From the NCBI GenBank assembly GCA_973895155.1, contig OZ316891.1, positions 3,051,801 through 3,115,800 on the forward strand: 64,000 nucleotides of DNA, in the 5' to 3' direction. Within the stretch, counting starts at the first letter, position 1. Each line of letters starts with the position of its first letter. The notes beneath the pieces were generated by a model that ran no database searches, was not told where the DNA came from, and saw only the letters and a list, made by a program, of their open reading frames with translations. The position numbers and the translations under genes are program-made. This DNA comes from Marsupella aquatica. Taxonomy: Eukaryota; Plantae; Marchantiophyta. This document shows positions 1,507-31,256 of this stretch, in pieces.

Positions 1507-1537
<31 letters not shown>

Positions 1538-4760: not shown

Positions 4761-4888
4761 AGTGGGGAGCTATGTGATGCCTAGCCAAGAATCACTAGGC
4801 CGGTTTACATGGTAAAAGCAGGAGTGTACCCTGGAAACACCTTAGTATAGTAACAAGACAAGGAAAATATAAACAATTAAGGGTGACT

Positions 4889-7996: not shown

Positions 7997-8388
7997 ATGT
8001 CCTTTGGCAAAGTAAGGATCTCCATTACGGCTTGCATGAACCCAACTGACAATCTATTGGAACCTGCAAAAGCCGCCTTGGGACTGGGATCAGTTTTTGG
8101 GTAGCAAACACTCAACATCGATTTATGGCGGGCATCCTCAAAGGAAGTCATTGGAACATATCCTGTATGTTTCGGGACTTTTGCCGAGAATTCCACCTTG
8201 CAGAAGACATCCATAATGAGAGTAACTACCTGAATTGAAAACAAGAATATGTCAAAAATGGGTACTTTTGGTTAGCGAGCTCGCTAGCAAAAAGTGCACG
8301 CAAAATATTGTGGATATCTTACCTCAATGTCCATATCTGCCTGATACAAAGGAGATGGAAGATTCTAGACCTTTTTTGGGGCCCCAAT

Positions 8389-8676
8389 CTTGGGGGGTTA
8401 ACTAAGTGTATATTTTGGGGTACCACGTGCAATCCTAGCCTAATATAAATAGACCTATTTTATAAAGAAAATATTCCAAGAATATTATCTATTTTCAATA
8501 TTAATGACCTATTTTACTTTATAAAGGGTATATATTAAACAATATTCTATAAACATGAGTTTATAATACCTTCTTTTGCCTCCTACGCTTTTTAAAAATT
8601 TAGTTAAAATTTGTCAAAACTACCTATTTTGGATCGCACATGGTTTCTAAAATTTTTGATAGTCAACCCCCCCGAG
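8389..8676. mobile_element. 288-bp MITE, copy A (8-bp TSD, hAT-like)
   Basis: TIRs CTTGGGGGGTTAACTA / TAGTCAACCCCCCCGAG; flanks GCCCCAAT (8381-8388) and GCTCCAAT (8677-8684); AT-rich core; reverse-complement homolog at 30726..31013. Confidence 0.85.
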
Positions 8677-8924: not shown

Positions 8925-11900
8925 ATATTAGGGATTTGGTGGAGAGTTGGGAGCCACAAACTGGTCCTAAGCTGACAGGGGAGGAGAGACGTTGCATGCA
9001 TCGATTCCTGAAGAGTTACTAGAATTGTTTTGCATTTAGCATGAAGGATTTGGGGACATTAAAGGGCCCTGGTATTCAGATTGAATTGGCTAGTGATGCA
9101 CCAATCTTTCGTAGACCATACCGTTACAGTGACACGGAGAGAACTCTGATTCAAAGCAAAACTCAAGATTTGTTGGAGGCTGGATTGGTAGAGATTTCAT
9201 ATGGGGAGTATGCATCTGCCACAGTGATGCCAGCCAAGAAGGATGTGCATAGCAATTACACAGATAGGCGCATGTGTGGTGATTACAGACCTATTAATCG
9301 CCACACAAAATCTGATCGATATGCCATGCCTACACCTGAGGAGATCTTTGATGCTGTTGAGCATGCAAAGGTTTTCAGTTCATTGGATCTGAGGGCAGGG
9401 TACCATCAACTTCCAATTAGGCATGCTGACAGGTCCAAGAGAGCATTCTGGGGGATTGATTTTATGGCAAAGATCGTTTGTATCAGTGGTTGTTCTTACC
9501 ATTTGGGTTGAAGAATGCACCAGTTGAGTTCTAGAGATCATGGATCGAATCCTTGCAGGTTTGGATTTTGTCAGATGTTATATTGATGATATTTTGGTCT
9601 ATTCTTCTACTATGGAAGAACAGCAGCAGCACTTGCAGATTGTGTTGGAGAGATTGAGAGCACATGGGTTGAAGCTCCATCCTGGCAAGTGTAAGTTCTT
9701 CCAAGACAAGATTGAGTATTTGGGCCACACTATATACCCAGGGGGATTGGGTGTACAACAGACCAAAGTGAAGGCCATTACATAGATTCCTCGTCCTATT
9801 GATGTGAGCAGAGTTCGTGCATTCTTGGGATTGGCGAGCTACTACAGGAGGTATGTTAAAGGATTTAGCCTGCTTGCTAAACCTTTAACCATACTCACTA
9901 AGTTGGATCAGGAATGGACTTGGGGTGATGACCAAGAGCATGTCCTTCAGGAGTTGAAGCAAAGGTTGGCATCATCCCCTATTTTGAGAAGACCCATTTC
10001 AGGCAAACCATTTCAACTACACACTGATTGGAGTGGAGTAGGACTTGGAGCAGTGTTGACTCAGAAAGATGATGAAGGGCATGAGTTTGTTGTGGCATAT
10101 ACCAATAGATCAAACAATTCAACAGAAGCTAAGTATAGCTCTTATGAGGGAGAGTGTTTGGCAGCAGTGTGGGCTGTGGCACACTTCCGTTGTTACTTGT
10201 TTGGTAATCCTTTCACTTTGATCACTGATCATCAGCCTCTCAAGTGGTTAATGGAGTCTGACAAGCTCACTGGGAAGCTTGCAAGATGGGCATTGTTGTT
10301 GCAGGAATATGATTTCCAGGTTGTACATAGACCTGGAAAGGTGAACTTGGATGCAAATGGGTTGCCGCAATCCATGTACCAGTCAACAGGATGAGATTGG
10401 AGCCAGATGACATGATGAGTCAGATAAGGAGATGGTGCCAGGATGGCATGCATTTGCCTTTCTTTTTTGGGTGCCAGCATACAGTGGATCTGTGGACTCT
10501 ACCTCATTGGATGGAGTGGATGATGAGTCTTCATATATGGATGCTGGTGAGGTAACTTCTGGACAACAAGATATTCACAATGATGTGAGAGTGTTGGAAT
10601 ATTTGCGTAGTGGTTCTATTGTTGGCAGTGTTGATGCCAAAGAACGTGATAGGGTTCTACAGATAGCCAAGAGGTTTCGATGGGAGGGAAACCATCTTCT
10701 GAGAGTACTGCATGATGGTAGGGTGTTGGTGGTACCAAAATCATCACAACAAGTACATTTGGTGCGACATGCACACGAGGAGTTGGGTCACTTTGGTGTG
10801 AAGCGCACTTACGGCTTGCTGCATACACATTATTGGTGGTGTGCTATATACACTCATGTCCAGCAATTGATAGCTAGGTGTGTGGTATGTGATAAAGTGA
10901 GAGCATCATTTAATGCTGTCACTCCCCAATTGCACCCGTTGCCGATCATGGGTCTGGGATATCGTTGGAGTTTGGATTTTGCTAGTCCATTACCTTTTAC
11001 CCAACGTCATAATCGGTATGTTTTGGTCATGGTGGAGCAGTTCTCCAAGTGGATTGAGCTAGTGGCGTTGCCAGATAAAGCCAGTGGAGGAGTTGCTGCT
11101 ACATTTTTGGACCGAGTACTCAGTCATTTTGGAGCACCAGCTGAGGTGTAATTGATTAGGGAACTGAGTTCAGTGGAGAGTTTGAGAGTTTGTGTGAACA
11201 AGCTCTGATTGATCATCGTACTACCTCTCGTGATCATCTTGAGGCAGATGGGTTAGCTGAGAGAGTTGTGCAAACTGTGAAGAAAGGATTACGTAAGTAT
11301 GGCTTGCAGGTTGGTCATCTGGGAGATTGGGATCTCCAGCTACCTTGGTTAGCTATGGGCAATTGTTTCAGTCAGCAAGCATCACTTGCATCCTTCTCAC
11401 CTTACTTTTTGCTCTATGGTAGAGAGCCAGATTTGCTAGCAGCTATTCGTCGTGATGCTGCACCAGTTGTGAACTTGGATGATCCTGATGTTTGGGTCAA
11501 GGTGTGTTCAGAGAGAGCACGAGTATTTCACAGAGTGATGCCCATGGCTTTTGAAAACCTTGCCATTGCCCAACATTGTGATACTTTGAGGTATACCACT
11601 ATTCGTGGAGGAGGTTACCGTGCAAGCATTCAACAATTTCATCCTAGTGATTATGTTAATTTGCAGCAGATATCACCCACAATACTTGATGTGATCGCAG
11701 GCCGAAGAATCTTACATGTGCGTGAAGTGTTGCCTTCTGGTGTCTTGATGTTAGAGGGACGCGATGGTATGGTTTGGAAGGATCATGTGCGCAACTGTGC
11801 ACCATGTCACCTTCCCAACATTGATGGTACAATATATCCAAGCTTGGCACATGTTCGTGCTGGCTTAAAATGTATGTTGTGTGGATCTGCTCAGGGAGCA

Positions 11901-12011
11901 ACTACTATGTTGATTTGTGATAAGTGTTCAAGAGGATGGCACATGTCATGTTTGACACCACCATTGCAGGTGATTCCTTGTGGATCATGGCTGTGTCCTC
12001 AATGTTGGTGA
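8925..12011 (+). pseudogene. Ty3/Gypsy pol (RT, RNase H, integrase) with C-terminal PHD finger; frameshifted, 5'-truncated (no gag/protease seen)
   Basis: RT: RMCGDYRPIN, LDLRAGYHQ, YIDDILVYS, IEYLGH. RNase H: LHTDWSGVGLGAVLTQ, YSSYEGECLA, TDHQPL. Integrase: HHCC finger (HEELGHFG...CVVC), WSLDF, ADGLAER. PHD: CMLC..CDKC..WHMSCL..WLCPQC. Confidence 0.95.
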
Positions 12012-12654: not shown

Positions 12655-12958
12655 TGATGGGTTTTGGACATGTGTGGACATGAGTTCCACTTGTATTCCA
12701 TTCTCTTGTGTTTGTGATGTGGCAGTGTGACTATGTTTGGATGTATGTGACAAGCGATGTATGTTGTGTAGCGATGTGTATGCGCACGACAGTTGCCAGT
12801 TGATCGATGGCGCGCCCAGTATGCGCAATAGGATCCGAGTTGGAGGCCAAATGTTTAGGGACCAAATTTGGTCCAGGGTGGCAGGTCTCCAAAAGCATAT
12901 ATGAAGGGAGTGGTGTCTCCCTGGGGGCCAAGGGCGAGCCGAAGTCGTGAGCCGCGGC
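12655..12958 (+). repeat. Second LTR copy, left part (interrupted by the CACTA)
   Basis: Starts TGATGGG and matches 12186..12324; ends at the CACTA TSD GGC. Confidence 0.6.
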
Positions 12959-12989
12959 CACTAGTAGAAACCGGGGTAATTTAGACCAT

Positions 12990-13115
12990 ACCTTATAGGA
13001 CTATGCCCACTAAGTCCTTTTTCCATACTTAAAACGACTCGCACTGTTTGCCCCGGTTTTGTTGAAGACTAGAAAAGACTATGAGTGTTTTATGGTTCAC
13101 TAAAAGACTATGAGA
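12990..13115. repeat. CACTA left subterminal repeats (putative TnpA binding sites)
   Basis: Repeated (A)AAGACTATG / GGACTATG / ACGACTCGCA motifs. Confidence 0.6.
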
Positions 13116-16100
13116 AGTAACCTTGCTACTTTGTGAAGGGTGAATAGTCTGTGGGTTATCATGGACCATAATGTTCACTTATGTTGAGGAGGGGTAATTC
13201 TATAAAGAGGGTGATAGCAAGGGGCATAACTCATTAAATGGCCTTATTTGTGAGCAAAAAGGTTTTGGGTTTAATGAAGTGGGGTTCATGGAGGATGGAC
13301 TACGGAGGGATGGTCAATATATTTTTGGCCATTACTAAATCCATCTATAAAAGGCCAAGAAGCACAAAGGTAGATTTGTAACGGTCCTTTTTCATACATT
13401 AGAGCTCCCTATCATTCTTGCACCGGGAATATTGCTTTTTAGGACCGGATATAATGTTGGGCAACCTTAATCCTCATTACAGCACAATAAAATGCCAATA
13501 TCATACATGTATGTGCAAATATGACCATTCATTGCCTTCTTAGGGTTTAGGGTGTTTGCCTTGTTGGAGTCTACTAGTGTTTAGAGAACATATGCTTAAT
13601 TATGTGCTCAACTGCTGACCCCAATGGTAAGGGCTTCATAAATTCCTTCCCTAATTTTTTTTAAGGGCTTTCTCAACCCTTGGGCCGGACTAAGTACAAA
13701 CTACATGGGCAAGGCGCGGGAGAATGAGGCCGTAACTCGGTGGCCTAAACAAGGTGGTGGGGTCTTGGGTCGGGTGTTCGGGGTTTTTCCAAAGGGTTTT
13801 TCATTCGCAGTTGTGCTTTCTCTATCTCTCCAGGCGCCATGCTGCATCCCTAAGTGTATACACTCTTGCCATCCACGCATGGCCCCTTACCTTTTACTGC
13901 CATTGTTGAATGCAGGATCAACCCGGATATAGCACCTGTGTAGAGGCATTGGGTGAGCGTAGTGAATGCCATTTGTGGGCCGAACGTTCGTGAGTCGAGA
14001 GCTACAGATCGTCCTACAGAACGACTGGCAGTCGGAGCGGCGCAGGAGCTTAGAGTGGGCCAACGCCAGCTGAATACAAGCCAGGAGTTGTTCGATAGCA
14101 TAAGGTGAGAGTCCAAGTTTTGTGTTGCTTTAGTGTCCGAGCAGCGTGCTGCCATTTCAGCCATAGTGCACCGCCTTTGAAGCTCCCGTTGTTAGGGCTG
14201 GTAAGACATCACGGCTACATTGCTTTTCTTTGTTGTCCTCTGTCTTTTTGTGGGGACAACCTACTTGATTTGAGCTGCGCAAATCGCCATAAGTTAAGGC
14301 ATGCGTCATGCCATCTGGATAGTGTGCCACCAAACTATGGGAGGATGAGCAACGCGTGGCTGTAACCAGGTATTCTGTCAGCACTGGCGAGATTTCATTG
14401 CTAAAATCCTATTGCCTGCAATGTGTCTTGTAATGTGTTTTTCCTCATTCAATCAGGAGCTAAGAAGGGTATTGTTAGGCTTCAATTACTCTGTGTTTTT
14501 CTCCAGCTCCATGGTACAGTTTGTGCTTTGTCTGGCACCCATGCTCCGTCGATCGTAGAGCTAGGTCAACCGAGCTTTGAAGAGGGAGGCTGTGGGAGCT
14601 CCTTACTGTGCTGCAACTGCTCTTCAATCAACGGAGTAGAGATTGTAGCTACGATCAGTGTTTGCGGAGCTGCCAGCCGGGTGCTTCGATAGTAGAGAAG
14701 AGCAGCCACAGTGATTCAGTCCTTCTCCTACTTGCAACCAAGGACCCCCTGTGCATCATAACGTTGGACCTCGGAGCTGAGCTGCGCATTGTCTCTATTA
14801 CATGCCTTGTTCTCCCGTCCAATGTTTCCTGCGATTTTCTTTCTTCTAGAAGAGAATGGTGATTTCTTCTTCAATCAAACAAAACCCCACCCAACCACCA
14901 CCCAAGAACGTGGGGTGTGCGCTTCTTAATCCTCCTCAAACTGGCCCCAAGTCTGCTGAAACCCCATATATTACCCACCGGCACCAATGGTCCAGTCCCA
15001 ACCCGTCTTCCGCTTGCCACCCTCCTCACTCTCTCGCGCATCTATCTCCCGATATTTCACGCGCAGCCGAGCCCACCAAAAGCTCTCTCCCTACAATCCC
15101 TCCTAAATCAACTTTCTTGTTTCCTACTGCTGCTGATGTATGTTTGTTCTCCCCTATTTTTGTTTACTGATTGGTCTCTCCACACTTCTTGCTTGACATT
15201 ACTGTTTTGCTCCTCCCTGGATCCGAACATGCCTTGTGCCCCGTGCTCCAACCTGCATCCTTTTCTTTACTGAGGGGGGGACCACAGCCTCCAGCCATAC
15301 CTTGTGGCGGGCCTGGTCAAGACGGTGGTCAGCCGCTCATTTTTGCGCTTTTTGGATTTGTTTCCCAAGCTTCTGGGCAAGGGCATTACCATTCCGGATT
15401 CTCCCCGAGGCGCCACTAGCTTTTTTTCTCGGTTGCCCGTGTGCCTACCTTCTTAGTTTAGTTCTTATTTTCTCTCGGTAGGTTTTCATTCACCTGATTT
15501 GGACTTTTTGCTCCGGTGGAATCTGTCTTGACAACTTGTGGGAGTTCTAATTGTTTATATTGAGCATTACATTAGAGGAGAATTATGAGAAGCTCCTTTT
15601 GTAGCATCCACATGAATGCTGCTGGTGTGAATCCTGTGTCAAGTGCAGGGTTGGTGATGGCAATTTTGAATGGTTCCATTGCTCAGCCAGTGGTGTTGCT
15701 CAGTCACTGAGGCGGGGCAGGGGCCCACCTTTGTAAGGTACAAACTAACTCAGAATTTGAATGTAGTATTTGGCTTCAATTGGCTCCTTGGTTTTGCTGG
15801 CTTCACAATGTCTGCTCATAACATTTTTTGATGAACATAGGTATGGATAGAACATAGTAATTGGGAATTCGAATCACACTGTTGTCTGCTTTGTTGGAAT
15901 GTGTAACTGCATACACATTCCACCTGAGGGTCGCAAGCTGGAAACATTTGGAGGGGTTAGTTTTTTGCAGCTTAAACCTATCAGGATTTTGCGCTTGTGG
16001 TGACGCTATCCTTTCTGCCACTTCATGAGTTTGTTATGGACACTGTGTATCAAAGTTCTTCTCAGGAGGCGCTGAGTTTGACAGGTCCATGTAGCTGCGC

Positions 16101-17193
16101 CATACAGCTTAGACTGGTGTAAGCAACTCAAATCAGTTGCTTTAGGCCTGCAGGATCGCGACCTAGATTTGCAAGTTGATTCTCCATGTTCACAGAACTC
16201 AATTTTTCAACATTGCTTTTGCTTTGTTGCTGACTGTCCTTGCCCGTAAAAGTACTTATATTCTCTGAGCTGCGGTTGGTTTGCAAGTCCCTGTAAGGTA
16301 TCAATGTACCTTTCTCCTCATTTTTTCCGCCTCACTTCCCTCTAAACCTTCACTTCGAGAATTACCTGAAACAAATCACTGTCTTTCTTGTGTCTATGTA
16401 CGCAGTGTCTGAGTTTCATCGTAATCTGTTGCATACCAATCACTGCAAGCCATTGCCATTGCTATCTCTGTTACGTCTATGTTGCTATCTCCATCTTCAA
16501 GCTGTCTGTGCAACTCTCAGGTGAGCTCGTTCATTGATGATTCATCGATTCTATGTTTTGAGCTGGACTTGCGCTTTGTATTGCATTGCAAAGCTTTGAC
16601 TTTGAACTACGATTTCTCGTTCATAACTACGATGACCACTACATTGCCTTACTCTGTTCATTGCAGTAGCACAAATACTCAATTTCATTGACAGAGATAC
16701 TGAAATTGCCACCCACTTTGTTTCAGTGTGTTTGACTGCTCGCTCTTGCAACTTTGGAGGAGGGAGTCTACAGGCGGGAACTGACAACACGCATTGAAGG
16801 TAGTTGAAGTCACTTGGAGAAATCATTCTTCCATATACATAGTTTCAGATTTAAAAAATGCTCCTTCTCAGCAGCATGTATTGAGTAGTTTGCCTGTCAG
16901 TTGAGTTATTGCTTTCCCATTGACAAACCTAGCATGTGGAGGAATTGCTAATTGAGCTGTATATTGCTTTGCCAGCTGAGCTCCTTGTTGAGCTCCTTTG
17001 GCGCCTTGCTGTGGAGGTAAGCCAACGCTTCACCTCATCTCAACCTTGACCTTCATTTTTTACTGGTGAGAGACTGAGTTGCCTCAAAAGTTGTGAACGT
17101 TGAGTTGTGTTGCGGTTGATAGCCTACTTTAAAGATCACGTCAGTATAGTGTGGATAGTTAACGAAGGGTGTGTGCTGCATTTTGATCTGGAC

Positions 17194-17232
17194 AACCAAG
17201 TGTAGAGTTGACTCTTTCTGAATGTTGTAGTC
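17194..17232 (-). pseudogene. Captured ubiquitin fragment (antisense to the CACTA genes)
   Basis: Reverse complement reads GAC TAC AAC ATT CAG AAA GAG TCA ACT CTA CAC TTG GTT = DYNIQKESTLHLV, identical to ubiquitin residues 58-70. Confidence 0.8.
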
Positions 17233-17680
17233 TGTTTTGCCTTGAACTGGGCCGTGGATGAATTGAGCTCGTGAGCAGTTTTTTTCTTTCCCATCTTCCT
17301 GAAGCTTTGTCTGCTTTCTGCCACCTCAGTGGAGGTTCACTTGCACAACACGACAACCAATGAGTTTTCTCTTTGCTGCAACCTGCAAGGTGAGACTTTC
17401 AATCTTTCTGGATGAAAAAACAGGATCCAAATATGATTTATGTACATGTCCATGGAGAACATGGTTTTATATACATGCTCTTTGTCTTAGGAACTCAACA
17501 TCAAATATGTACTATGCACTTTTCATGCTATGTGTATACTGTGACCTGTAGTTGGAACCAATTTAGTGAGTGGGAACTGATAAGTGCAGGTTGGTTGCTG
17601 TGGGCAAGGCAAGTCGACCTCCTGCTCGCCTTGCTCATCAAAGGACGTGAACAGAGGACATCACAACAAAAGCAACACTT

Positions 17681-18130
17681 ATGGTGAGGACCCGCAACGC
17701 TAAACATGTGCGGCTTGCACGCAAGGCAGAGATGTTGCGCCTTGAGTATGTCAGACTGGGGATCCTTCCAGTCCAGTCTGCATGGTACTTTGAGTACCCT
17801 ATTCTTTCCAGGAACAACTACAGCCGGCCACTACCTGCTTCAGTACCCTTCCCGACATCCTTGGTATTTGTGTCTCTTGTACATGACCCACCACAAATTA
17901 GGTGCCAAGGGTGTGTGCACAGTTGCCAATATGACTGTCCTGCCTGTAGGGCTTCTGGCCCAGAGTTGGATGACCGTTCTCTTGGATGTCCGTTTTTGCA
18001 TAGAGCACAATGTATCATCTGGAACCACTCGCCATCCTGCAGTGTGCCTGGCGATGTCACTTGTCCTGCCCTCCCAGACCCCACCACCAGTGACTTTGGT
18101 GTCTACACATGTTTGGATCACACGCTCTAG
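17681..18130 (+). CDS. CACTA cargo ORF1: 149-aa basic N-terminus and Cys/His-rich putative zinc-binding protein
   Basis: ATG-initiated and uninterrupted; CQGC..CQYDCPAC..GCPFLH..C..YTCLDH; same strand as neighbouring cargo. Confidence 0.5.
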   Translation: MVRTRNAKHVRLARKAEMLRLEYVRLGILPVQSAWYFEYPILSRNNYSRPLPASVPFPTSLVFVSLVHDPPQIRCQGCVHSCQYDCPACRASGPELDDRSLGCPFLHRAQCIIWNHSPSCSVPGDVTCPALPDPTTSDFGVYTCLDHTL

Positions 18131-18773
18131 AGGACCGCTTGTCACACCGCATGCACAGACCAGAGACCATTGACCTATAACTTAACACTCTGACTTGAAC
18201 AGAGAGGATATTTACTAAAAAATTTGAATTATGAGCAATTTTGGGTCCAGGGTTTAGGGTCAACAGTACATAACTTATCCTATTATGGCTGCACTAAGTA
18301 GAATATCCTAATTTAAGATGCTAGCAAGCTCACTTAAAAGTCTCCTTTCAAAGACTGGAATTAATGGGCCATGTGATAACCTGGAAAAAGTGATTTATGC
18401 CTAACTTATTTGCCTCATTCACTATCATAGCCTATTTAGGATGTATAAATTACAACCCTGATCACACTGCTTGATACCAATCCTGTTCAAAAAATGCCTG
18501 TTTTACATGTGACGACTATTGTATGTGATTCAAATGCATTAAATCTTGTTGCAGATCTCCTTTGGTGAATCATAGCCACAAAATTGAGGTGTAGGTGGAG
18601 CTATTGTACTAGGGGATCAGTTTTCAGTGTGGGCTCAACAAACGATAAAGTATGTCTACTCTGCATCTCTATGTGATCATTTCATTGCAGTAGCAATTGC
18701 CACTCTAGTCTATATGCTACACTGTACTTTTTGTACACTGCTAAACTGTATTGTATCTGTCTCATGCGTAGGC

Positions 18774-19454
18774 ATGGCACGCCCTAAAATCCGAGCCAAG
18801 AAGCGGGGGACAGAGGTGAGCAACACAGGTGTAGTTGGGCCAGATGGTAGTAACTTCTCCGCAAGTCAAATTTTCTAGAAGGCAGCTCATTGTTGTGCCA
18901 TTTGTGACGATGGTGGGGGCTTAGCCATATGTGAGGGCCCTTGCATGAGGCATTTCCACCTCAACCCAGAGTCTGACCTTGCTACAGAAAACAACTGTCC
19001 AGGGGTGGGCCTCCCGTCAGCACACTAGGGAGGCTGGATGTGCACTGATTGTTTGGAGAAGCAGGCTAAGTGTAATCAGTGTGGGAAGTTGGGGTCTTAT
19101 GAGGGCTCTGTTGATGCTCCACCACTTGTTAGGAAATGCCCTGACAGATATTGTGTGAGGTTCTTTTGTTTTTCATGTTTGCCCGATCTTGCCACAGCTT
19201 GCCCACTTCATAAGTGCAAGGCATGTGGTCAGCACGATGAAGATTTCTGGGTGGACATAGTCCACTGTGTTAGGTGTCCCACCATGTGGCACTTTCATTG
19301 TTTGAAGGAGCGTCAAGCAGAAGGCTATGCTTGTGACAGACACATCTATCATCACTCTGCACATGGTGTTGATCGATGGATCTTCTATTGTCATCGCCAT
19401 GCCATAGATCCTACTTTGCACACTCCTATGAGAGATCACATTTCTTGGCTTTGA
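18774..19454 (+). pseudogene. CACTA cargo ORF2: stand-alone EDM2-type composite triple PHD finger (226 codons, two in-frame TAG)
   Basis: One frame from ATG 18774: CAICDDGG..CEGPCMRHFH..WMCTDC..CNQCGKLGS..CPLHKCKAC..CVRCPTMWHFHCL..RWIFYCHRHAIDPTLHTPMRDHISW. TAGs at 18876 and 19026. Splice acceptor just before the ATG. Confidence 0.88.
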
Positions 19455-20016
19455 ACCTAAGTAATGTACATGCATAGTGCACCTGATGTGGATACCTTGG
19501 AGATTGCAGACATTCCAATTTTGAGAAGAAGGACCTCTGTAGGAGAGGATGCTTAGGCAACAATTACCCTAAGTTCATTACTTGTTCCTGGGTACATGCC
19601 TTCAAAAACTCCCCTACAGCCCTCTAGGAACTTTTTTAACTCTGCAATCATTTTGATCACGACTTACACGACACTACTTAAATTAAATCAGGACTTCTCA
19701 TTATCAGCATATAAGTTACAAGGCTATTTAATTTGCGAGAATTCCCTTAAAGTGTACCAACATTTTGTATTCTCATTGAATGTCTGCCCATTTACAACAT
19801 CTGTATGTGGCATCACAAAACAATTGCACTTGTCACCTTCAATATTGTAAAGGCACATATTCAAACTATGAGGTGCATCCTTGCAGGTGTCTAGTACGTT
19901 TGAACCAATATTTCTACCATTTGGAATCGGAGCAGAGACTCACCAGACGACTGGACTGGATTATCAGGTGAACGCATTATCTTCCGGTCTGTAGTGATTA
20001 GGTGGGGTGTGTGTAC

Positions 20017-20865
20017 ATGGCCTCTAGGAAACGTACAAAGGTTGACCACCCGCCTCTGTTGGCTGGAATCAAAGCCATTTTGATTCCTGGCCACTATGGG
20101 TTCACCCAAGTGAGTTGGCCAATCGTACAAAAACGATTCTCAGAGTTCCATGGGACTGAAGTCAAGGACATCACTCCACAGACTACACATGTTGTTGCGG
20201 GGACATGGTTGGATGTGATGAACAAGTGGTCATGGTCCTTCATTGATTCTGCCATTACCAACCAAGGTCTAAAAGTGGTTGAAGTCTCTTGGCTGACTGA
20301 TTCTGTTAAACATAGGTGTGTACAGAGTACTGAGCAATATGAGTTGTGGAAGAGTGAGGAGGCCACTGTAGAGGCTTTGGCTGAAAAGGAAGCCTATGAA
20401 GCAGCGGCAGAGAAACCCAACTTTGCTTCTGTCGAATATGGACCTGTTGTCAACATAGGACACCATCCTATGCGTGCAGATGCTATATTGAATGAGCATG
20501 GCAAGGAGAGAAATACCATTATGAAGGGGTTCAGTGTGGTATTTGCAGAAGAGGGAATTGGGGAGACTAAGTGCAGACTGTACAAGTCCATAGTTGTTGA
20601 GCTAGGTGGGACAGTGGAGGAGAGTCTAACAGAAACCTCCACTCATGTTGTAGGTCTGTCATACATGAAAATATGCAGAAAATTCTTTAAGACAACAGTG
20701 CGTCATTTTGTCATGAACAACAATCTTTGGGTGCTTTCCCCTGATTGGCTTCTGGAATCAGCAGCGAGAGGGAAACGACAGAATGCTTGGGACTTTGATA
20801 TTTTTGAGGCCTGGCCCTCCAAGCTTCAGCGAAGATGTATGCTTACCAATGGTGGGAGAAAGTGA
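20017..20865 (+). CDS. CACTA cargo ORF3: intact 282-aa tandem BRCT-domain protein (DNA polymerase lambda-like BRCT)
   Basis: Two repeats carry THVV and W-L-x-[DE]-S motifs (TTHVVAG..VEVSWLTDSV; LGGTVEESLTETSTHVVG..VLSPDWLLESA); N-terminal NLS-like RKRTK. Confidence 0.85.
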   Translation: MASRKRTKVDHPPLLAGIKAILIPGHYGFTQVSWPIVQKRFSEFHGTEVKDITPQTTHVVAGTWLDVMNKWSWSFIDSAITNQGLKVVEVSWLTDSVKHRCVQSTEQYELWKSEEATVEALAEKEAYEAAAEKPNFASVEYGPVVNIGHHPMRADAILNEHGKERNTIMKGFSVVFAEEGIGETKCRLYKSIVVELGGTVEESLTETSTHVVGLSYMKICRKFFKTTVRHFVMNNNLWVLSPDWLLESAARGKRQNAWDFDIFEAWPSKLQRRCMLTNGGRK

Positions 20866-21041
20866 GGAGTAGGAGTCCCTCATATTTTTGTATAAATCAC
20901 AATTTTGTAATAAATGTGATCCCTGAACTAACTCATCTTGTCATGGTTGGTCGCAGTTGAAGTGATTGTTGTTTCCTGCTGTGTGGGGTGTGACTGTGAA
21001 TCTACTTGCTGGGCTCTGTTTGGCTGAAAACTTTGGTGGGT

Positions 21042-21488
21042 ATGTTGTCTCTTCCAGACCGACAGGCCCTATGTAGGGTCCTCCTACGGGTTGCATCATG
21101 CATGGCTACTGCTTGGGCTTACTTGTGTGGATTGGTAACCAGACAGAGTGTAGCTCCATCCGAGATAATGCCTGCAGACCTTGGATGTGTTGTGAATGTT
21201 GTGGTGAATGAGGATGCACAGTCCGAAGAGGACATTTACTTTTCAGCAGATGAGTTAGACAAGCACGATGCTGTAGGTGGTTCCTTGTTGCCTAATTTGG
21301 CAGATGATATAGTTCTTACACATGTCTGGCCGAGGGTTCTTGTGGTGTCTGGCGCACAAGATATCTGCAAATATAGACTAATTAGTACCCAGTGGAGGGA
21401 CTTGGTAGCAACATGTGCACCATGGAGGGCACTGCTGCCACTGCTTGTAGGCACGGATCGGAGACCACCATGGCATGAGAAGGTTTAG
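21042..21488 (+). CDS. CACTA cargo ORF4: F-box domain protein (C-terminus possibly frameshifted)
   Basis: SLLPNLADDIVLTHVWPRV...ICKYRLISTQWRDLV matches the plant F-box consensus LP.LP.D...I..R.....R.V...W..L. Confidence 0.72.
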   Translation: MLSLPDRQALCRVLLRVASCMATAWAYLCGLVTRQSVAPSEIMPADLGCVVNVVVNEDAQSEEDIYFSADELDKHDAVGGSLLPNLADDIVLTHVWPRVLVVSGAQDICKYRLISTQWRDLVATCAPWRALLPLLVGTDRRPPWHEKV

Positions 21489-21905
21489 ACCTTGATGACT
21501 TAATGTACATGCCTGAGTACCTCAGGGCTAAGTGGCATCGACAACAGGATTGGTATCCGTATTTGATGTGGTAGTAAGATGAGGACATCTCACACCGGTC
21601 TCGCACCTGGCACCTGTGTCTATGACTATACATGATTGGACTCTAATATGGTCATGGATGTACGTGCAGAGGCAGTACATGTGAGGACAGCGGAGGAGTT
21701 GACACCCTCAAACATTTAGGAATTTTGTCTCATTCACTTGAGAATAGGTACATGACTCAGGCACCTATATTTTTTGTTTTTTTGTTTTTTTGAAACGTTA
21801 TGCTACGTATTTTGGCAAGTACAGTCGGGGGTGAAATCCTTAACAGGAAGTGTATTTTTCACTTGCATAATAAAATGATAGGGTGCTGAGTGCGTGTGTA
21901 TAGTG

Positions 21906-24900
21906 ATGGCTCCAAGGTTGCCTCTTCGCAACCCATTTAGGATTAGGCATCATGATTCTAAATTGTGGATGTGTGAACAAGCCCGGGCCGCCCAAGGTAG
22001 GAGTAGGAGGATGAGATGCCATGCACACAGTGCCAAGGATTCAAGTCGTTGAGTTTGAACACTGTGCACCTTCACCTGCTGCGGCATGAAAGGCACCCTC
22101 GGTGGAGGGTTTGGAATGTACCAGCAGAAGAAGACTCCTCTGATGAAGAGTGGAGAGCTGACTTTGTGGATTCTAATACAGCTAGGCGTAGAGACTACGT
22201 AGAGCAGGACATAGACTGTGTAGAGGATGGTCCTAGGGTCCAACATGAGAACGTGGATGACCAAGATGGAGATGCAGAGGCAGTCACTGAGGACGGTGGG
22301 ATGGATATCCCAAGAATGGTTCAAGAGATTTTTTTGAAGACCTTGATGCTTTTTACGACACAGTGGAATCAAAAGAGGACAATGAACCGCAACCACACAT
22401 TGGAGACGGCCAAGCTGAACCTGACTTTGACATTGGGGAAGGTGCAGTAGAGAGGGAGTGGGTGTTTGGGGGCCCAAAACACATCAAAGAAGCTTGCATT
22501 CCCATCTACGAGGGGTCGAACTGCTCCAAGCTGGGTTTTGTCGTGTTGTTGTTGAACATCTGTGGCAATCACAATGTTCCCAATATATTTGTGACAGAGT
22601 TGTTGACCTTCCTGCGCCGAAATGTGTTACCAGATGGTAATTCAATTCCAAAAAATATGTACGAGGCTAGGAAATTGATGTCTAACCTTGGGCTGAACTA
22701 TGTGTCTATTGACGCATGCCCTGATGGGTGTGTTCTCTTTCGCAAAGAGCATGCAGATAAATTGACATGCCCTCATTGTGGTAAGCACAGGTACAAGAAT
22801 GTAGGGAAATGTACACACCCTGCCAAGGTTCTTCGTCATTTTCCTCTCATTCCTAGACTACAACGTCTGTTTAGATGCCCTACCATTTCCAAGCTGATGA
22901 CATGGACTCCTGATAACAAGAGCAGTGATGGCCTACAGCGTCACATTGGAGATTCCAACCATTGGAAATTTGTTGATGAGAGGTGGCCACAGTTTGCTGT
23001 AGAGAAGTGGAACTTTCGATTTGGTCTATCACTGGATGGAGTAAACCCATTTGGAGACAAAAACAACCGTTATTCATGTTGGCCGGTTACGCTGCTAAAT
23101 TACAACCTTCCCCCATGGATGACTACAAAGAGGTTTTTTGTCATGATGGTGCTGTTAATCCCTGGACCAGCTTCTGTGACCGAGCAATTCATAGATATCA
23201 TGTTGGCTCCAGCAGTGGAAGAGTGGAAGACTTTGTGGATAGAAGGGGTGTTAACCCATGATGTTCTGAAGGGGCTTCTTCGACCCAGCCCCTTTAGACT
23301 GCATGCAATTTGTTTGCTGGATATAGCAGATTACCCAGGCCATGGCATCATATCTGGACGAGTGACAAAGGGCTATGTGGGGTGCACACCATGTGGGAAA
23401 AATGTGACAAGTGAGTGGTCGCATGCCCTGCACAGTATGAAATTTCAGGGGCATAGAAGGTATCTGCCTGCTGATCATCCTTACAGGCACACACGGTCTC
23501 AAATTGCACACTTCAACAACAAAACAGAGCTTCGTGGCCCACCACAGAGGGTCACCAAAGAGCAAGTCCTGAGGTGGGCAGCCAGGAAGGCTGATTGGGA
23601 CAAGATAAGTGCCACTGATTGAGAACCTGAGGATCCAGTGGTGAAACACGGTGTGAAAAGACAGACCTTGATGGACTTGGAGTTGGAGTACTGGAGGGTA
23701 ATGTACTTAGCCTCCAGCCCCTGTATGATTGCAATTTTAGATTGGAGCAATGGTGGATTGATGTTGGTTACAATCCTCCTATGTGGTTAATTAGTGTTTC
23801 TGTTGTTGAATTCTTTGCTTTGTGGAGTGCAGGAATTCGAGCCCAGCAAACACAATGTGGACGTCATGCACATTGAGAAAAATATTTGTGAGAGCTTGCT
23901 GAAGTTCTTGTCGGGTGAGAAAGATATAGGAGCAATTTGAGCTGATATGCAACAGAAGAGGATTCGCCCTCACCTTTGGTTGAAGCCCCATGCAAGCAAT
24001 CCCAATGTACTTCTCAAGTTCCAAGCTCCCTATGTGTGCACACAGGAAGAATGGAAGACATTCTTGTATAGATTGAGCTGTCTGAAAGTGCCCTCTGGCT
24101 ATGCTGGTGCCTTCAAGAAGCATATTACAAAGAATAAACTTGGCAGTATGAAAACACATGACTACCATGTGTTGATGCAGCACATTATGCCCCTATGCCT
24201 TAGAGGTCTCATGCAGAAACCAGTCTGTAATGTCATTCTTTGACTGTGCAATGTATTTCGCCGTATATGTGTGAAAGTGTGGGATCCCCAAGGATTGGAG
24301 CAGTTGAAGCAGGATGCTGCTTATGTCCTCTATGACTTGGAGATATACTTCCCCCCTGCTTTCTTTGATGTTATGAGTCATCTCCTAATCCATGTGGTAG
24401 AAGAGCTAGGGCAGTATGGGCCAGTCAGTACCAGATGGATGTACCCTATGGAGCGATACATGAAGTTGTTGAAAGGTCATGTGAGAACATACTACAGGCC
24501 AGAGGCTTCCATGGCATTGGGGTACATTAAGGATGAGACGTTGGGGTTCCTAACAGAGTACATGGCTAGGTCTGGTGAAGCTATGACAAGAGTTTGGAAA
24601 TCTGGTGAAGATGATGGAGTGAGTGGCGAGGTTGTTGAAGGTGTGGGACGTGCTGTTCAGCTGCCTGTTGTGATTCAAGACAAGGCTCATTCATATGTGC
24701 TGGCAAACACAGAGCCTATGCAACCATGGTGGAGGTGAGTGATTGAATTGACTTGCCTTTGTTGTGATGCTTCTTGTCTGTTCCAAGGGTGATCTTAGGT
24801 TGTCATGTGTTGTTTAGACCTAACTATGCCTGTACCTCATATTGCAGGGAATATGATATGCAAAAAGCTGCACACTCTGGGCAGCAGGATCCCTTCCCAC

Positions 24901-25607
24901 AGTTCGAGCAGTGGATTCGGGTGACAATTCGAGAGCATAGTAGACATCACCCAGATATGGAGAAGGATTTGTATCTTCTATCTGTGCCACCACGATTGTC
25001 TATTCTGACCTACAAACGGATGAGAGCTTATGGAAATCATTATCGAGTGAGGGATGAGCAGGGTGACCATTGTGTATCATATGATTGTGGTTTGATTTCT
25101 GTGTTTGAGCAGAGAACCTCTGAAGAACAGAGGGGGTGGATGAAGATGGGTTACGTGGGGGAGTTGACCGACATTTGGGTGTTGAATTATGGTAACACAA
25201 GTGTCCCAGTGATATTGATGAAGGGATCATGGGTGAAATCAGAGTGGCAAAGACCAAGGGCCACCATGAAGCGTGATCATGATGGGTTCTTGTTGGCCAA
25301 TTTTAGGTCCAGAGTACCAGAATGGTCTGAGCCTTTTGTTTTCCCTAGCCAAGTTGAACAGGCTTTCTTTGCAGATGTGGAGGAGTCACATGGCTGGAGG
25401 GTGGTATGCCATAGCCAAGCACGGAACAGGCAGATGGATGGAAGTAAAGTAGAGTTCAGTTTGGATGACCATGCTGCATTCGAGCATCCTAGTCACGAGA
25501 CTGTACTTCCAACTCGGGCAGGGACTGACTACATCCCCTTAACATTGAGAGAGACATATGATGAACCTGGGCAAATGGAATATGATGAGGTTGATGATTT
25601 GCAATAG
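21906..25607 (+). pseudogene. tnpD: CACTA TnpD-like transposase (transposase-associated Zn domain, Transposase_21, DUF4218, DUF4216); 3 exons; disrupted
   Basis: Motifs CPC..C..V..HL, IDACPDGCVLF, VLRHFPLIPRLQRLF, GLSLDGVNPF, YSCWPV..YNLPPW, HNVDVMHIEKN, MKTHDYHVLMQ, FFDVMSHLLIH, GPVSTRWMYPMER, EPFVFPSQVEQAFF. Introns 23698..23832 and 24735..24847. Frameshifts near 22020 and 22335; TGA stops at 23620, 23938 and 24241. Confidence 0.95.
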
Positions 25608-25784
25608 GCAACAGCTGGCGATTGGCAAGTATGAGGTTGAGGATGACTACCTGCACAGAGTCACAGAACGAGAATTGCTGCCTGGAATGATGTTTAGGAT
25701 AGTTGGATATGCATGAAATTGATTGATACTTTGAAGTTAGTGTGCTGATTCTCCCTGTTTGGTTGTGGGTGCTGTGCAGAAGCT

Positions 25785-28700
25785 ATGGGGGAAGAGGGTG
25801 ATGACATGGAGACAGACATGGGGCTTGGAGAGTGGGGTGAAGAGGAAAGATTGGATATGGATGGAGACCCAGATGCAGGGGGCTCACAGAAAAATGCATC
25901 TATGCAGGATGCACAGGGCCCCCATCAAGTCCCAGGTAGGTGGGCAGCTAGAGAGAAATCACATAATCCATACCCTAGAAGGAGCCAGAGTTATTGGTAA
26001 GGGACGCCTGATAATTATGATGATGACTATGATGGAGCAGAAGATGGATGGGATGAATATGAACACCTAGAGCGTGGTAGAGACGGGTACAGAGGGCAAT
26101 GGAAAGGTGAGGAGGATGATTGAACAAGTAAGTGCCTTGTGCTAGTGATTTTGTGATGGTAGTAGAGATTTAGCTCAATATGGACTTATCTGATGTGTAG
26201 CTAGGGCAAAGAGTTTATCTTACAGGTCCATGAGTGTGGCATGTACCTGTTGGTATGCAGACTCTGATTGGGACAATCACAAAAACAACAAAGGCCATCC
26301 ACGTTCAGATAGGAGGCAATCATTCATAGGCGGGAGAAACGACCCTAATTCATCAAGACAAAGCAATAGGACAGGTGGTCCAGAACCATCTATGTGCCAA
26401 GGGAGAGGTAACTTGGTCATTGCATAATTGCTCTGAAGTCCAGTGTATATTTGGCAGCAGGATTTATGATTCATACTTACCTAATGGATCCTATAAATGT
26501 GCAGGGACTCCAGGGAGGTTTGGACAATGCAATCCAGGCCGTGGGGGGACACCAGGCCGTGGAGGGACACCTAGTAGCGCTTCAGGGAGTACCAAGGCAG
26601 GAGATAGTAACAAATTTGGTAAAGTAGAAGTGAATTCCGATGGTTGGATAACTCCCACATGTGATGGTAAGAACCGTTGGCATGCTGACCTAAGAGGAGA
26701 AGTATTGCGTTGGTTAGATTTGAGCATTACAGAGTTTAGGAGTCAGAACAAAGCTGATTGGGCTGCTATCTGCAAGGACATTCTTGAACGGTGGGACTAT
26801 GTTGGTAATGATGGTAAGGGCCCAGTTGAAGATTGCATATCAGATTATGCAATGAGGATTTTGAAACAATAGAGGCATAGGTTGAAAAGGATGTGGATAG
26901 ACAATGGTTCTAACAGGAGAATGCCACCACCCCCATCATTGGAATTGGATCAATGGACACGGTTAATCAAAGGGTTCATGTCGGAGACTGGGCAGAGCAA
27001 GAGTGAACTGATGTCAAATGCTCGAGGCAAAGTGAAACACCTGTCACAGGCTGGGAGAGGAAGTTATGCTCCAGTGAAAGAACAATTGGTAAGGCAGTGA
27101 CATGCCTGATAGTAAGCCTCAAACTTATCATCTTGCTACCATTATTACATTTTCATTGACAATCAACACTTGGTTTCATTCATATGTATGTTGATGTGGA
27201 CTGTAGAAGAAATTGGCAGGTGAAGAACCATCAGCACAAGAAGTGAGAGAGGAGTTCATGAAACAAAGGAGTGAGGTGACAAGTGTGACTTCCAAACAGG
27301 TGATTATATTGTAATTCTGTATGTTCTATGACTATTTGGCCTTGAGCATCAGAAAGAATTGTAGTAGGAAGTAAGCAACCAGTTCTTGGGGACAATTATC
27401 TGAGATATGTAAGCTGTGTTATGACAAGGAACTGTTACAACTCTCACAGAGATGTGTGAACGGTTGAAGTCATTAGAGTGTGGACTCCCTCGAGTGGAAA
27501 GTAAATTGGCTGATCGTTTGGATATTGTGGAGGCATCTGTAGCGAACCTTCTTGCATCAGTGGAATCTAATTTCAAGCTTGTGATTGAAAAATTGGGTGG
27601 TTCCCAACCAAACAATGAGGGCAACATTGTACAAAGTGTGCCCTTGTTAACAAAAAAGGGAATTGGCAAATCTGACACAGGTATGGAAATGACACCGGCT
27701 CATTGTTCATTGTGTCCTATGTTCAAATGTTAGAAGTAAGTTTTCATGAATTGAGTGAATGGTTTGAATGCAGGAAGAGTGGAGGTAGAGGACCCTGTAA
27801 TCAGTAAGCAAAATGGAAAAAAGGTTGTTGAGACAGGTAACCTGCTATGATCCAGTACATTACATTTGAAAAGTGCATGGAGTTTTGTGAAGCTTAAGCC
27901 GGTTGGAGGTAATCTTTTCTGTAAGAACTGGTTGGATCAACTGGGATCTGAAGTGACATCATGATTGATGTATCAGGTGATTCAAAGAGCAATGAAAAAG
28001 ATGTGCCCAGTGCCTCAGTGACCATAGCCAAGGAGGTATCAGGTAAGCTGATACTTTAGATTCCTCTCCTACCATTGTTGAGAAACAATTCAGTGGTTAA
28101 TAGATTGAACCTGAATATTGTGGTGTGTTTATTGATCAGCAGAAGCAGACATGGAGGATATGGCAATGGCAAAGAAGGGGAAGAAGGCTATTCATAATGG
28201 TAAGGAGATAGTGACAACTTTGTGGTTGGTGACATGTACATGGCGCACATGTGATGAGTGATTCACTTATGTTGGACAATACACTGAATTGTAGTTGATG
28301 CAGAGTTGACAGACTCTCAACCAAGTGGGAGCAGGGTGAAGCGACGTCAAAACTTGGGAGCAACATTGGATGCAAGTAAGATTGTAGATGCTTCAATTGA
28401 AGCAAGTACAATGTTGGCAGATACTGAGATGATGTCGCAGGGAAATCCTGCTACACAATCGGAAGTGTCAAATATGGATGCAGATTCTTTGAAGAAGAGT
28501 GTAGCCAATTCTCGATCACCAGCACAAAACACTCGTGCCAAAGTCATGACTCGCAACCAAGGTATGAATAATGTCATGTATAAGCCACCCAGGAAAGCCA
28601 AGAAAAATAGCCAGGGTAAGGTGGAGGTGATAGCCACAGCAGAGCCAGTCCATAATCTTCTATCATGGGAGGATGACTCACAGGTATGTGTGGGTACAGG

Positions 28701-28896
28701 CATTTTGCGACCGGATCATGCTAAATTCCATGGCAAAGTGGTCCCGGATGACCATGTAGTAGTGTTGTTGAATACAATGATTGTATCTGATTGTAATTTG
28801 CCATTTCCGAATAGAGACGATGATCCACCTCAAGAAATAATTGCAGATGCAGTAGGATCTCTTGTGCTCCGGCCATTAGAGTGTGTTAGTCTGTAG
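25785..28896 (+). pseudogene. tnpA: CACTA TnpA-like multi-exon gene (Ptta/En/Spm Transposase_24-like central domain, TNP1/En/Spm C-terminal domain)
   Basis: PPSLELDQWTRLI..KSELMSNARGKVKHLSQAGRGSY; C-terminal VGTG..FHGKVVPDDHVVV..LPFP..IADAVGSLVLRP; ~10 GT-AG introns; TAG at 26870. Confidence 0.8.
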
Positions 28897-29389
28897 TGAC
28901 TGAATACAAGTGTAGTTAGAATCAAGTGAATTGTGTCACATTTTGACATTGCCTTGGAAAGATCCAAGAAATATCTGTACCAATTTTTCCATTTGGTAAA
29001 GAGGATGAAGGAGTGTGTGACATTGATATTTCTGAATTCTGTATGTATGAAACAAGTGATTGATGTCAAACTATGGCTCTATGATAATTGTCTATGATAC
29101 TTGAATCTGTTTTGTATCATTTGAGTATTAGTGTGTATGGTATAGAGAAATACTTTGTGACCTTCTTTGTAGTCTATGATGTTTGAATCTGTGAATTCAT
29201 ATTAGTGTACATGGTATAGAAGATGGCTTTCTGAAACTCTGAGTTCTAATGTTAACATGATGAATGGTGAGCTTATAGAGTGAGTTCATTCCAAGTACAC
29301 AATAAAACATAATTGGAATGTGTTATTTGTGCACAAGAGTGAGTTCATTCCAAGTAGTATAGTGGGGTTTTCATCACTCATATCCAGTT

Positions 29390-29714
29390 GACATGAAAGA
29401 CTTATACATACCCCACAAAGTGTTTACTTTAGTCATTTTATAAACCCACAAAGTATATTTAAAGACTACCCTTCTAGTCGTTCCCAACGACTCACCATCG
29501 CAGCCTATAAAAGACTACAAATGACTCACCAAACCTACCCACACAAAGACTACAATAGTCTAAAAATCCAGTCTATTAAACGACTTACAAACCAGTTCTA
29601 TAAAGGACTCAGTTGATTATAGTAACAAAACATACGACTCGCAGTCCTATAAAGGACTGGAGTCTTTCCCAGTCATTTCCAAGTCCTATACGGTACTGAA
29701 TAGTCATTTAATGG
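29390..29714. repeat. CACTA right subterminal repeats
   Basis: Multiple AAAGACTAC, CTATAAAGGACT and ACGACTC motifs in both orientations. Confidence 0.7.
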
Positions 29715-29747
29715 GGTCTAAATACCCCCCGGTTTCTACTAGTGGGC

Positions 29748-30308
29748 GGTCATGACAGAAAGGGAAAGCGCCAAACGGAAACAATGATATCTTCCCAACG
29801 GGAAGTCCGTTGGAGGACTTCTTGGGTGCGTTGGAAATCTCTCAAGGCCAAGTAGGCGTGGAGGTTGGGTTCTTGGGTGCATGTCCTGGGGTCAGGGTGA
29901 TCACTTAGTGATGGATAGGTACAAGGGGGTATCCGGGCCGCGCTCAAGGAAGGAGTTGTTCTTGACGAACAGTGGGCATGGGTTCTGGTTCCGGCTTATG
30001 GCATCGAGAGGACCTATCGCTGACCTATTTACCAATGTCTGTTGAGCTTGAGTTAGGATGCTAGACTTGGCAAGTTCTAGATCTTGAAGGGTTACTTACC
30101 GAGGTGCTTGGTTGCTTGTGCAAGCAGTGAGGACCGTTGAGTAGCGGTCGTGTTGGTGAGCAAGTGCAGCTTCGTATGGGAGGGGCCGTGGGTTGGTGCA
30201 AGGGGCACTAGGTTGCTTACTTGAGGTAATCCGTGGAGGCATTCAAGCACTAGGAGCACTTAGGCGTGGGTGCTGAGCTTGGTGAGGGGGCTGGGTGGCA
30301 AGGTCCAC
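29748..30308 (+). repeat. Second LTR copy, right part (resumes after the CACTA)
   Basis: GC-rich non-coding sequence continuing after the TSD; exact 3' end uncertain, abuts Harbinger ORF1. Confidence 0.45.
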
Positions 30309-30309
30309 C

Positions 30310-31256
30310 CCTAAAGGACTGCCCTAGGTGGACCAATCCAACCAACGATATGGCAAAGGGGAATGGCAAAAAAATGGTAGCAGCAAAAGGTGAGGAGAAA
30401 GATAAGGACAGCTCAAGCCCAACTCCAGAGGTTCTTGAGACATCAGACAATGACATTGCAACACAAGCAGTTGATGACTATGAATCAGGATTAGCAAGCA
30501 GGAAGAGACCTATAGGAAATTGGAGGGCAAAGGAAGAGTTAAAGCGAATGAAGCACCAAGAAGATGCTCTGAAGATGACAACGTTGGCTCAGAAAGAGAT
30601 TGCCACTGCCAATGTGCAACGTGCTGGAGTAGCTGAAAACAATTCCAGTATGGCATTGCTTTCATTACCTACAAATAACATGACACCACAGTTGCAAGCT
30701 TTCATGGAGGAATGGAAGCTGGAAACTCGGGGGGTTGACTATCAAAAATCTTAGGAACCACGTGCGATCCAAAATAGGTATTTTTGATAGAAATTAACTA
30801 AATTTTTAAAAAACGTAGGAGGCAAAAGAAGGTATTATAAACTCATGTTTATAGAATATTCTCTAATATATAATTTTTATAAAATAAAATAGGGTTATTA
30901 ATATTGAAAATGGAGAATATTCTTGGAATATTTTATTTATAAAATAGGTCTATTTATATTAGGCTAGGATCACACGTGGTACCCCAAAATATACACTTAG
31001 TTAACCCCCCAAGGCTGGAAATTGCCATCAATTTGAAGCAACAAATGCAGCAGCATATAGATGTCCAGCCAATTCCTCCAGTGACACACAATCCACTGCC
31101 AAGCGTCCGACAGCCGGTATTCCCAATGCCACACCTCCAAATGTTGTTCAGGAACCAGAGGAGTCTGAGGATGAAGGGGACAAAGCAATTGAAGTTCCAG
31201 TCGGGGAACAGCCAATGAACCAAGATGCTTTTATGGCAATGCTTGAGCAGACATAA
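30310..31256 (+). pseudogene. PIF/Harbinger ORF1 (Myb/SANT partner protein) C-terminal half, NAM-associated-type region, MITE-interrupted
   Basis: LKDCPRW and RPIGNWRAKE motifs typical of PIF ORF1; the reading frame continues across the MITE. Confidence 0.75.
30726..31013. mobile_element. 288-bp MITE, copy B (8-bp TSD)
   Basis: TIRs CTCGGGGGGTTGACTA / TAGTTAACCCCCCAAG; perfect TSD GCTGGAAA at 30718-30725 and 31014-31021. Confidence 0.92.

Follow-up and report, generated by a model that had tools for sequence, protein, structure and literature searches.

A dead CACTA transposon copy from the liverwort Marsupella aquatica displays a family-level cassette of accessory genes under protein-level constraint

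Introduction

Transposons of the En/Spm (CACTA) type carry CACTA-type terminal inverted repeats (TIRs), a 3-bp target-site duplication (TSD), subterminal repeats, and the genes TnpD and TnpA placed head-to-tail (PMC13547354). The element described here shares these traits. It lies in a 64,000-nucleotide stretch of DNA from the liverwort Marsupella aquatica (contig OZ316891.1, positions 3,051,801 to 3,115,800 of the forward strand), which is called the window below and supplies all coordinates, and it differs from En/Spm in having four extra co-oriented genes before TnpD, referred to as open reading frames (ORFs) 1 to 4. In Table S6 of a study of 775 active plant CACTA clusters, 11 rows name BRCT, PHD or F-box domains, and only one of these is a CACTA row (RTT107_BRCT_5, one cluster), PHD or F-box occurring in none (PMC12973397). 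The enlarged En/Spm elements of the red alga Chondrus crispus, at 16-20 kb with 4-5 ORFs, are similar in size and ORF number, the two features compared; the cited passage names no domains (PMC6431247, citing Kojima 2013).

Extra genes are also known from the VANDAL (MuDR) DNA transposons, which carry VANB and VANC. The latter probably derives from MAIN, a chromatin regulator captured from the host, and is one precedent for the co-option of such regulators by transposable elements; an NDX-like domain in TnpA provides another (PMC13547354). VANDALs belong to another superfamily, and the anti-silencing action of VANC was shown experimentally, whereas the cassette described here is known from sequence alone. 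Its modules are also different, namely PHD, BRCT, F-box-like and a Cys-rich protein of no known family, and Pfam finds no VANC/MAIN-like (VANC/PMD) domain in ORF1-4. The cassette may work like VANC, but it is not a VANC-family gene. Pack-CACTA elements resemble our element in having CACTA termini around host-derived sequence (PMC6379663). In contrast to these non-autonomous elements with their chromosomal fragments, the family described here has its own TnpD and TnpA, with frame breaks that are absent from other copies, and carries whole, diverged and constrained ORFs.

We describe an unusual accessory cassette that is a property of a CACTA family, is under protein-level constraint, is seen here in a dead copy, and is undescribed as a combination in the literature searched. 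No title or abstract describing this combination of accessory genes was found in a literature search that left subscription journals and Repbase outside its reach, and in PMC13621724 the terms occur only among its references. On balance we favor the view that the element is a broken copy of a multi-copy CACTA family whose accessory genes probably act as adaptors to host heterochromatin and DNA repair.

Results

The element is 16,786 bp long (window 12959-29744). Its 14-bp TIRs are complementary at 14/14 positions and are bordered on both sides by GGC; among 10 candidate pairs of CACT-type TIRs with no more than two mismatches, a matching TSD was found for the 12959/29731 pair only. The corresponding empty-site joint, 12955 to 29745, is present in contigs of three of four sequencing runs (X2, X3 and X5), with three letters fitting both sides, so the TIRs and perfect TSD proposed in the initial annotation are confirmed. 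Downstream of the cassette, TnpD (from 22016) matches the Pfam families Transposase_21 (198 bits), DUF4218 (92 bits), DUF4216 and, weakly, Transpos_assoc, and beyond it a TnpA-type region matches Transposase_24 below the cutoff (E 0.003 at 26873-27097). A 7-bp motif picked by eye occurs six times in the two 500-bp ends and not at all in the interior (shuffle mean 0.22, maximum 2 in 2000), and these subterminal repeats are likely TnpA sites. A CACT(A/G) TIR, a 3-bp TSD, TnpD, and TnpA with subterminal repeats, the TnpA profile match being sub-threshold, together place the element in CACTA/En-Spm.

The second gene of the cassette is of EDM2 type. Its NSD/EDM2-type PHD fingers fall below the Pfam cutoff (E 4e-5 and 7e-4), but comparison with long EDM2-like proteins gave E values of 1e-33 to 1e-18. 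A profile search returned 555 proteins at E <= 0.001; among the best 150 listed, the long ones tested have EDM2-type architecture, and the best long matches combine a DNMT1-RFD with the same PHDs. ORF2 has the composite NSD-type fingers and C-terminal extension of the family, the same three fingers as Arabidopsis EDM2 of the ASI1-AIPP1-EDM2 complex. It differs from EDM2 in its size of about 220 residues, in lacking introns, and in lacking the N-terminal RFD and everything after the PHDs, including the long C-terminal part; the full architecture takes about 1200-1400 aa, against 217-245 aa for ORF2-type proteins. Identity is at most 35% to 123 EDM2-like proteins longer than 300 aa, a set in which the host's own gene is not included, and ORF2 is thus not a near-identical piece of any of these proteins.

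Among 112 candidates, five homologues of ORF2 were found, at 38-81% identity and 217-245 aa, and all five end at the same HISW motif or within 9 residues of it. In a quick tree of 73 of the 150 rows, 17 of 23 short rows fall on one side (SH-aLRT 93) and the remaining 6 among long ones. A more careful tree (LG+G4) of 36 hand-picked rows, which used the most complete short rows, left out long-branch and fragment rows and is unrooted, places 11 short rows on one side with support of 100/100, at 1.4 changes per column from 25 EDM2/NSD-like rows. ORF2 belongs by sequence to its own clade of EDM2-type PHD proteins of about 220 residues. The PHD region is split by three GT-AG introns in grass-type EDM2-like metagenome records (L003, L004 and L006) and by none in ORF2, which suggests capture through spliced RNA; an acceptor-like AG lies 2 nt upstream of the ORF2 ATG. 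Scanning with the ORF2 alignment gave nine metagenome loci among 221 stretches, at 25-46% identity, none of which matches ORF1, ORF3, ORF4, TnpD or TnpA, and gave none among 13 genome contigs and 42 viral contigs.

Other EDM2-like proteins in these searches are also reduced. Records L002-L007 and P0033 are short (about 330-390 aa) PHD proteins with a basic N-terminus; P0033 groups with the long EDM2-like rows and is therefore a truncation of EDM2 separate from the ORF2 clade. Five proteins of 620-770 aa (P0015, P0018, P0020, P0028 and P0032) form a distinct EDM2-like group that ends soon after the PHDs; they rank with the best-scoring long relatives of ORF2 and constitute a candidate donor lineage. 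An origin of ORF2 from the PHD finger of a neighboring Gypsy element was rejected, the two sharing generic single-finger similarity only (27% over 48 columns).

The remaining genes are less easily assigned. ORF1 had been called a zinc finger; this label rests on its Cys/His pattern, because Pfam gave no match below E 0.3, and there was no usable Atlas match. We regard ORF1 as a Cys/His-rich protein of no known family that is predicted to bind zinc. It has two homologues among 75 candidates, both at 54% identity over 97% of the length and with the same MVRTR motif. An overlapping frame at 17706 (155 aa) has no Pfam match and was set aside in favor of the 17681 frame, for which homologues were searched and found. 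ORF3 is a tandem BRCT protein, as first proposed: both BRCT stretches exceed the Pfam cutoff (51 bits against 21.3), the frame is open, and the two halves align with each other (23% identity, E 3e-6). Its single homologue cluster among 623 candidates (P0002, 61% identity) retrieves generic BRCT clusters only in the Atlas, all under 0.9. ORF3 bears a possible resemblance to the N-terminal BRCT of Pol lambda. AlphaFold models of ORF1 and ORF3 are of low confidence (pLDDT 44 and 30). ORF4 starts at 21042 or 21168 and ends at 21577, or at about 21646 if further stops are crossed; it gave no Atlas result, and its short C-terminal part has no Pfam match.

These homologue searches covered proteins of 0.55-1.75x the query length, with fused forms included for ORF2 through a whole-library search, and the protein-level tests of constraint cover ORF1-3. 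For ORF2, 53 of 208 columns are invariant over four distant rows, against a null of 16.2 (maximum 26 in 5000), and Cys is kept at 18/22 positions (p 6e-9). ORF1 shows 67 invariant columns among 146 (null 42.7, maximum 56), and in ORF3 all 10 Trp are retained (10/10, p 0.007). For ORF1-3, the homologues and the protein-level constraint bear out the initial annotation's view of a long-maintained cassette as opposed to Pack-type scraps.

The cassette is a family trait. Eleven runs were listed, none on record as RNA, and nine contain the stretch; we compared six of these (X1, X4 and X6 were left out), representing five labelled organisms and one unlabelled run, and the best-covering run may be the window's own sample. 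Contigs on the element, at 80-100% identity, number 8837 in X2 (about 57% of which was read), 22746 in X3, 950 in X5 and 1051 in X7. Cassette bins are covered at 30/30 in X5, 26/30 in X7, 30/30 in X8 and 21/30 in X9, and many copies in several organisms carry cassette sequence, which answers the question of whether the cassette is unique to this copy. Median summed depth over the cassette, TnpD plus TnpA, and the 5′ region is 62k/58k/2k in X2, 163k/190k/8k in X3 and 141/149/9 in X5, so that the cassette is about as deep as the transposase genes and 15-30x above the 13.1-17.2 kb region; this comparison is supporting only, because summed contig depth is no copy number. X8 has long contig pieces, some 90-98% identical, among them 17564-18211 and 20886-21726, the latter over the ORF4 region with 51 differences in 839. 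One piece each in X5, X7 and X8 spans the last spacer into TnpD, and in X7, diverged sequence matches ORF2, part of ORF4 and the TnpD core at high depth. A joint linking ORF1 to the middle of TnpD (18119 to 24283) had 22 letters on one side only and was set aside. The observed/expected ratio of CpG is 0.27-0.39 in the ORFs, similar to 0.26-0.29 in TnpD/TnpA.

This copy itself is dead, given the stops in ORF2, the frameshift in ORF4 and the breaks in TnpD, and it is not autonomous because TnpD is broken; the initial annotation overlooked this decay. The four compact co-oriented frames that it described do exist, each with an ATG and with no intron needed, but only ORF1 and ORF3 are open here. 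In ORF2, codons 35 and 85 are TAG stops. The first of these positions reads Gln in homologues P0003, P0004 and P0005, and its stop is absent from the contig difference rows listed; the second reads sense in an X5 contig. The earlier assignment of an EDM2-type PHD module stands by profile and tree, in a gene interrupted twice in this copy and below the Pfam cutoff. ORF4 stops at 21488 unless the frameshift near 21481 is crossed, and other copies in X2, X3 and X5 have one extra base at 21481. TnpD has frameshifts near 22018 and 22329 and stops near 23620, 23938 and 24241, and its frame-changing indels are not present in other copies as seen in contigs.

The layout of the element is given in Table 1. 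In the variable 5′ region none of five frames has a Pfam match; the sequence is T-rich with many splice-like sites, shows less CpG loss (observed/expected 0.43-0.54), and differs between copies by deletion joints (14746 to 16730, 15166 to 17571 and 17261 to 17565). It possibly represents leader exons or copy-specific captured (Pack-like) DNA before the conserved core. The start of that core is covered in X5, X7, X8 and X9, with loose contig ends upstream of 17564/17565 in X5 and X8, and from its sequence we infer a splice role for the acceptor-like site in it. Acceptor-like sites before ORF1 and ORF2, together with AATAAA after ORF3 and ORF4, are suggestive of alternative splicing from a shared leader.

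Table 1. Features of the CACTA element (window coordinates).
Feature	Position	Strand	Basis or remark
Left TSD, GGC	12956..12958		empty-site joint
Left CACTA TIR	12959..12972	+	14/14 against 29731-29744
Left subterminal 7-bp repeats, 3 copies	13065..13110		shuffle test
Variable 5′ region without coding match	13091..17560	+	Pfam, contig depth, deletion joints
Conserved non-coding start of family core, splice-acceptor-like site near 17589	17565..17680	+	contig coverage
ORF1	17681..18130	+	149 aa, open
ORF2	18774..19454	+	226 codons, EDM2-type triple PHD, TAG at 18876 and 19026
ORF3	20017..20865	+	282 aa, open, two BRCT
ORF4	21168..21577	+	acidic N-terminus and F-box-like motif; frameshift near 21481
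TnpD transposase gene	22016..25607	+	apparent introns; broken here
TnpA-type multi-exon gene, decayed	25781..28896 (approximate limits)	+	Transposase_24, reading frames
Right subterminal 7-bp repeats, 3 copies	29462..29552		shuffle test
Right TIR	29731..29744	-	14/14 pair
Right TSD, GGC	29745..29747		matches left TSD

The surrounding DNA is that of a repeat-rich plant. A decayed Ty3/Gypsy pol occupies 9023-12011 (+), its integrase region ending in a PHD finger (Pfam PHD, 38 bits), and the CACTA insertion lies about 950 bp downstream of it, in a very high-depth repeat that is possibly a Gypsy long terminal repeat (LTR). The long inverted repeats 8384-8672 and 30729-31018 were considered as the ends of an outer element, a reading rejected because both carry short TIRs of their own; they represent two copies of a miniature inverted-repeat transposable element of about 285 bp (8388-8673 and 30727-31013, opposite orientation, 91% alike, TIRs starting GGGGGG). 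A NAM-associated gene at 30254-30751 (+) and a Plant_tran gene at 32583-32885 (-) are the two facing genes of a PIF/Harbinger element. At the left edge, a direct repeat of at least 300 bp (1-300 and 4984-5283, 91%) flanks GC-rich, coiled-coil-like ORFs without clear Pfam family, and 1-5283 is possibly an LTR element.

Discussion

Our results suggest that the four ORFs are very probably accessory genes kept by selection; given that, a role as chromatin and repair adaptors is about an even call. The modules would descend from an ancient capture of host genes, in the case of ORF2 of an EDM2-family gene and likely via a spliced intermediate; they would have been trimmed to a basic N-terminus and a bare domain, and selection acting at the level of the transposon would have kept them. 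EDM2 binds chromatin carrying H3K9me2 and acts together with ASI1 and AIPP1 to suppress premature polyadenylation within heterochromatic introns (PMC7529245). By homology, ORF2 is likely to be a chromatin reader and to bind H3K9me2-marked chromatin as EDM2 does; lacking the other EDM2 domains, it may act as a competitor of the host reader, divert that reader, or anchor proteins of the element there, with the result that the element would be expressed from, or inserted into, silenced chromatin. Arabidopsis Pol lambda uses its BRCT to bind LIG4 and XRCC4, and the polymerase has been linked to the repair of excision sites (PMC4444747); the tandem BRCT of ORF3 could plausibly bind end-joining factors at the breaks that excision and insertion leave. 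ORF4 may bind SKP1 as a decoy or adaptor, a role that its short C-terminal part would fit better than that of a full substrate receptor. The ORFs may be expressed by splicing of a shared leader to successive acceptors. A VANC-like anti-silencing role, as the initial annotation proposed, is plausible by analogy.

Several observations weigh against these interpretations. Loss of EDM2 raises (derepresses) Mu1 transcripts and lowers (tightens) those of COPIA4 (PMC3632883), and because of these opposite effects the direction in which a PHD decoy would act is ambiguous. The sole PDB match of ORF3 is to DNA ligase 4 (E 0.008), not Pol lambda. The F-box of ORF4 is sub-threshold in Pfam (E 0.07, 13.5 bits against a cutoff of 20.5), and its sole PDB match is the FBXW11 F-box at E 0.63; of the F-box gene first described, an F-box-like motif survives in a frame that is shifted here, and SCF-mediated degradation is the least supported of the proposed functions. 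Enrichment of Cys retention in ORF1 (7/9) is by itself not significant (p 0.08). At the DNA level, 8/21 changed codons are synonymous against 22-28% expected (p 0.07-0.20; 24 best-supported substitutions, most of them probably private to the lineage of this copy), a difference that is not significant. Among 20 other short ORF2-like proteins picked by hand, 8/20 end at the C-terminal motif and 12/20 lack it; many of the latter would be truncated or frameshifted, which fits decaying transposon copies or cut contigs. No contig among those listed joins two coding regions, so there is no direct view of gene order, and carry-over between samples could account for the low-depth pieces in X7 and X9. 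We also infer the CACTA linkage of the distant homologues, because they come on contigs of 1.0-2.9 kb without genomic context.

That missing context is what would favor a different history, in which ordinary lineage-specific host families gave rise to the short PHD, BRCT and Cys-rich genes, which were constrained as host genes and captured more recently by this CACTA family; short EDM2-like proteins do occur elsewhere in the tree, P0033 among them. We consider it quite unlikely. This history would take four captures, one for each of four unrelated, intronless and co-oriented whole genes spaced 300-640 bp apart; the ORFs are as CpG-depleted as the transposase genes, many members of the ORF2 clade look like decaying copies, and the diverged high-depth matches in X7 fall on ORF2, part of ORF4 and the TnpD core. 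Less probable still is neutral Pack-type capture, in which host fragments are amplified as passengers of one successful element. The broken state of ORF2 and ORF4 here and of many ORF2-like proteins, the DNA-level result, and the position of ORF4 outside the protein-level conservation tests would all agree with it, but TnpD is equally broken in this copy. Full-length, open, stand-alone homologues that are 38-61% identical and begin and end alike, the selective retention of Cys and Trp, and, for ORF2, the lack of introns and the divergence from its long relatives make neutral capture unlikely for ORF1-3, for which we consider it largely refuted.

A further alternative accepts selection and changes its object: the accessory genes would serve target-site choice and transposition chemistry and not counter-silencing, the PHD protein tethering the transpososome to heterochromatin as a safe harbor and the BRCT protein recruiting repair to finish insertion. 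Efficient transgene integration needs Arabidopsis Pol lambda (PMC4444747), this copy has a Gypsy element as its neighbor and lies within a repeat of very high depth, and the finger at the end of the Gypsy pol indicates that integrating elements in this genome do capture PHD fingers. On the other side, ORF2 is a separate gene and not a transposase fusion, and one insertion site in a repeat-rich window says nothing on preference. We judge this alternative unlikely, if the least so of the three. Only slightly more credence, and still a minor share, goes to an ambitious extension of the adaptor reading, a virus-like accessory operon in which four stripped host modules expressed from one spliced leader would recognize H3K9me2, take over transcript processing of the EDM2 type, direct end-joining where the element excises and divert an SCF ligase. 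Such a multi-protein counter-defense would have no relation to VANC, and its age would have allowed its PHD gene to reach a diversity equal to that of the sampled long EDM2-like proteins.

Plant transposons are known to encode few counter-silencing or targeting proteins, and the support for them has been called context-specific (PMC12973397). If the adaptor reading is true, the cassette would represent a second way for transposons to co-opt modules of the host's chromatin, repair and ubiquitin systems, one that involves several genes. Its four small proteins, one of them of no known family, could help to explain the high copy number of CACTA elements in heavily methylated genomes.

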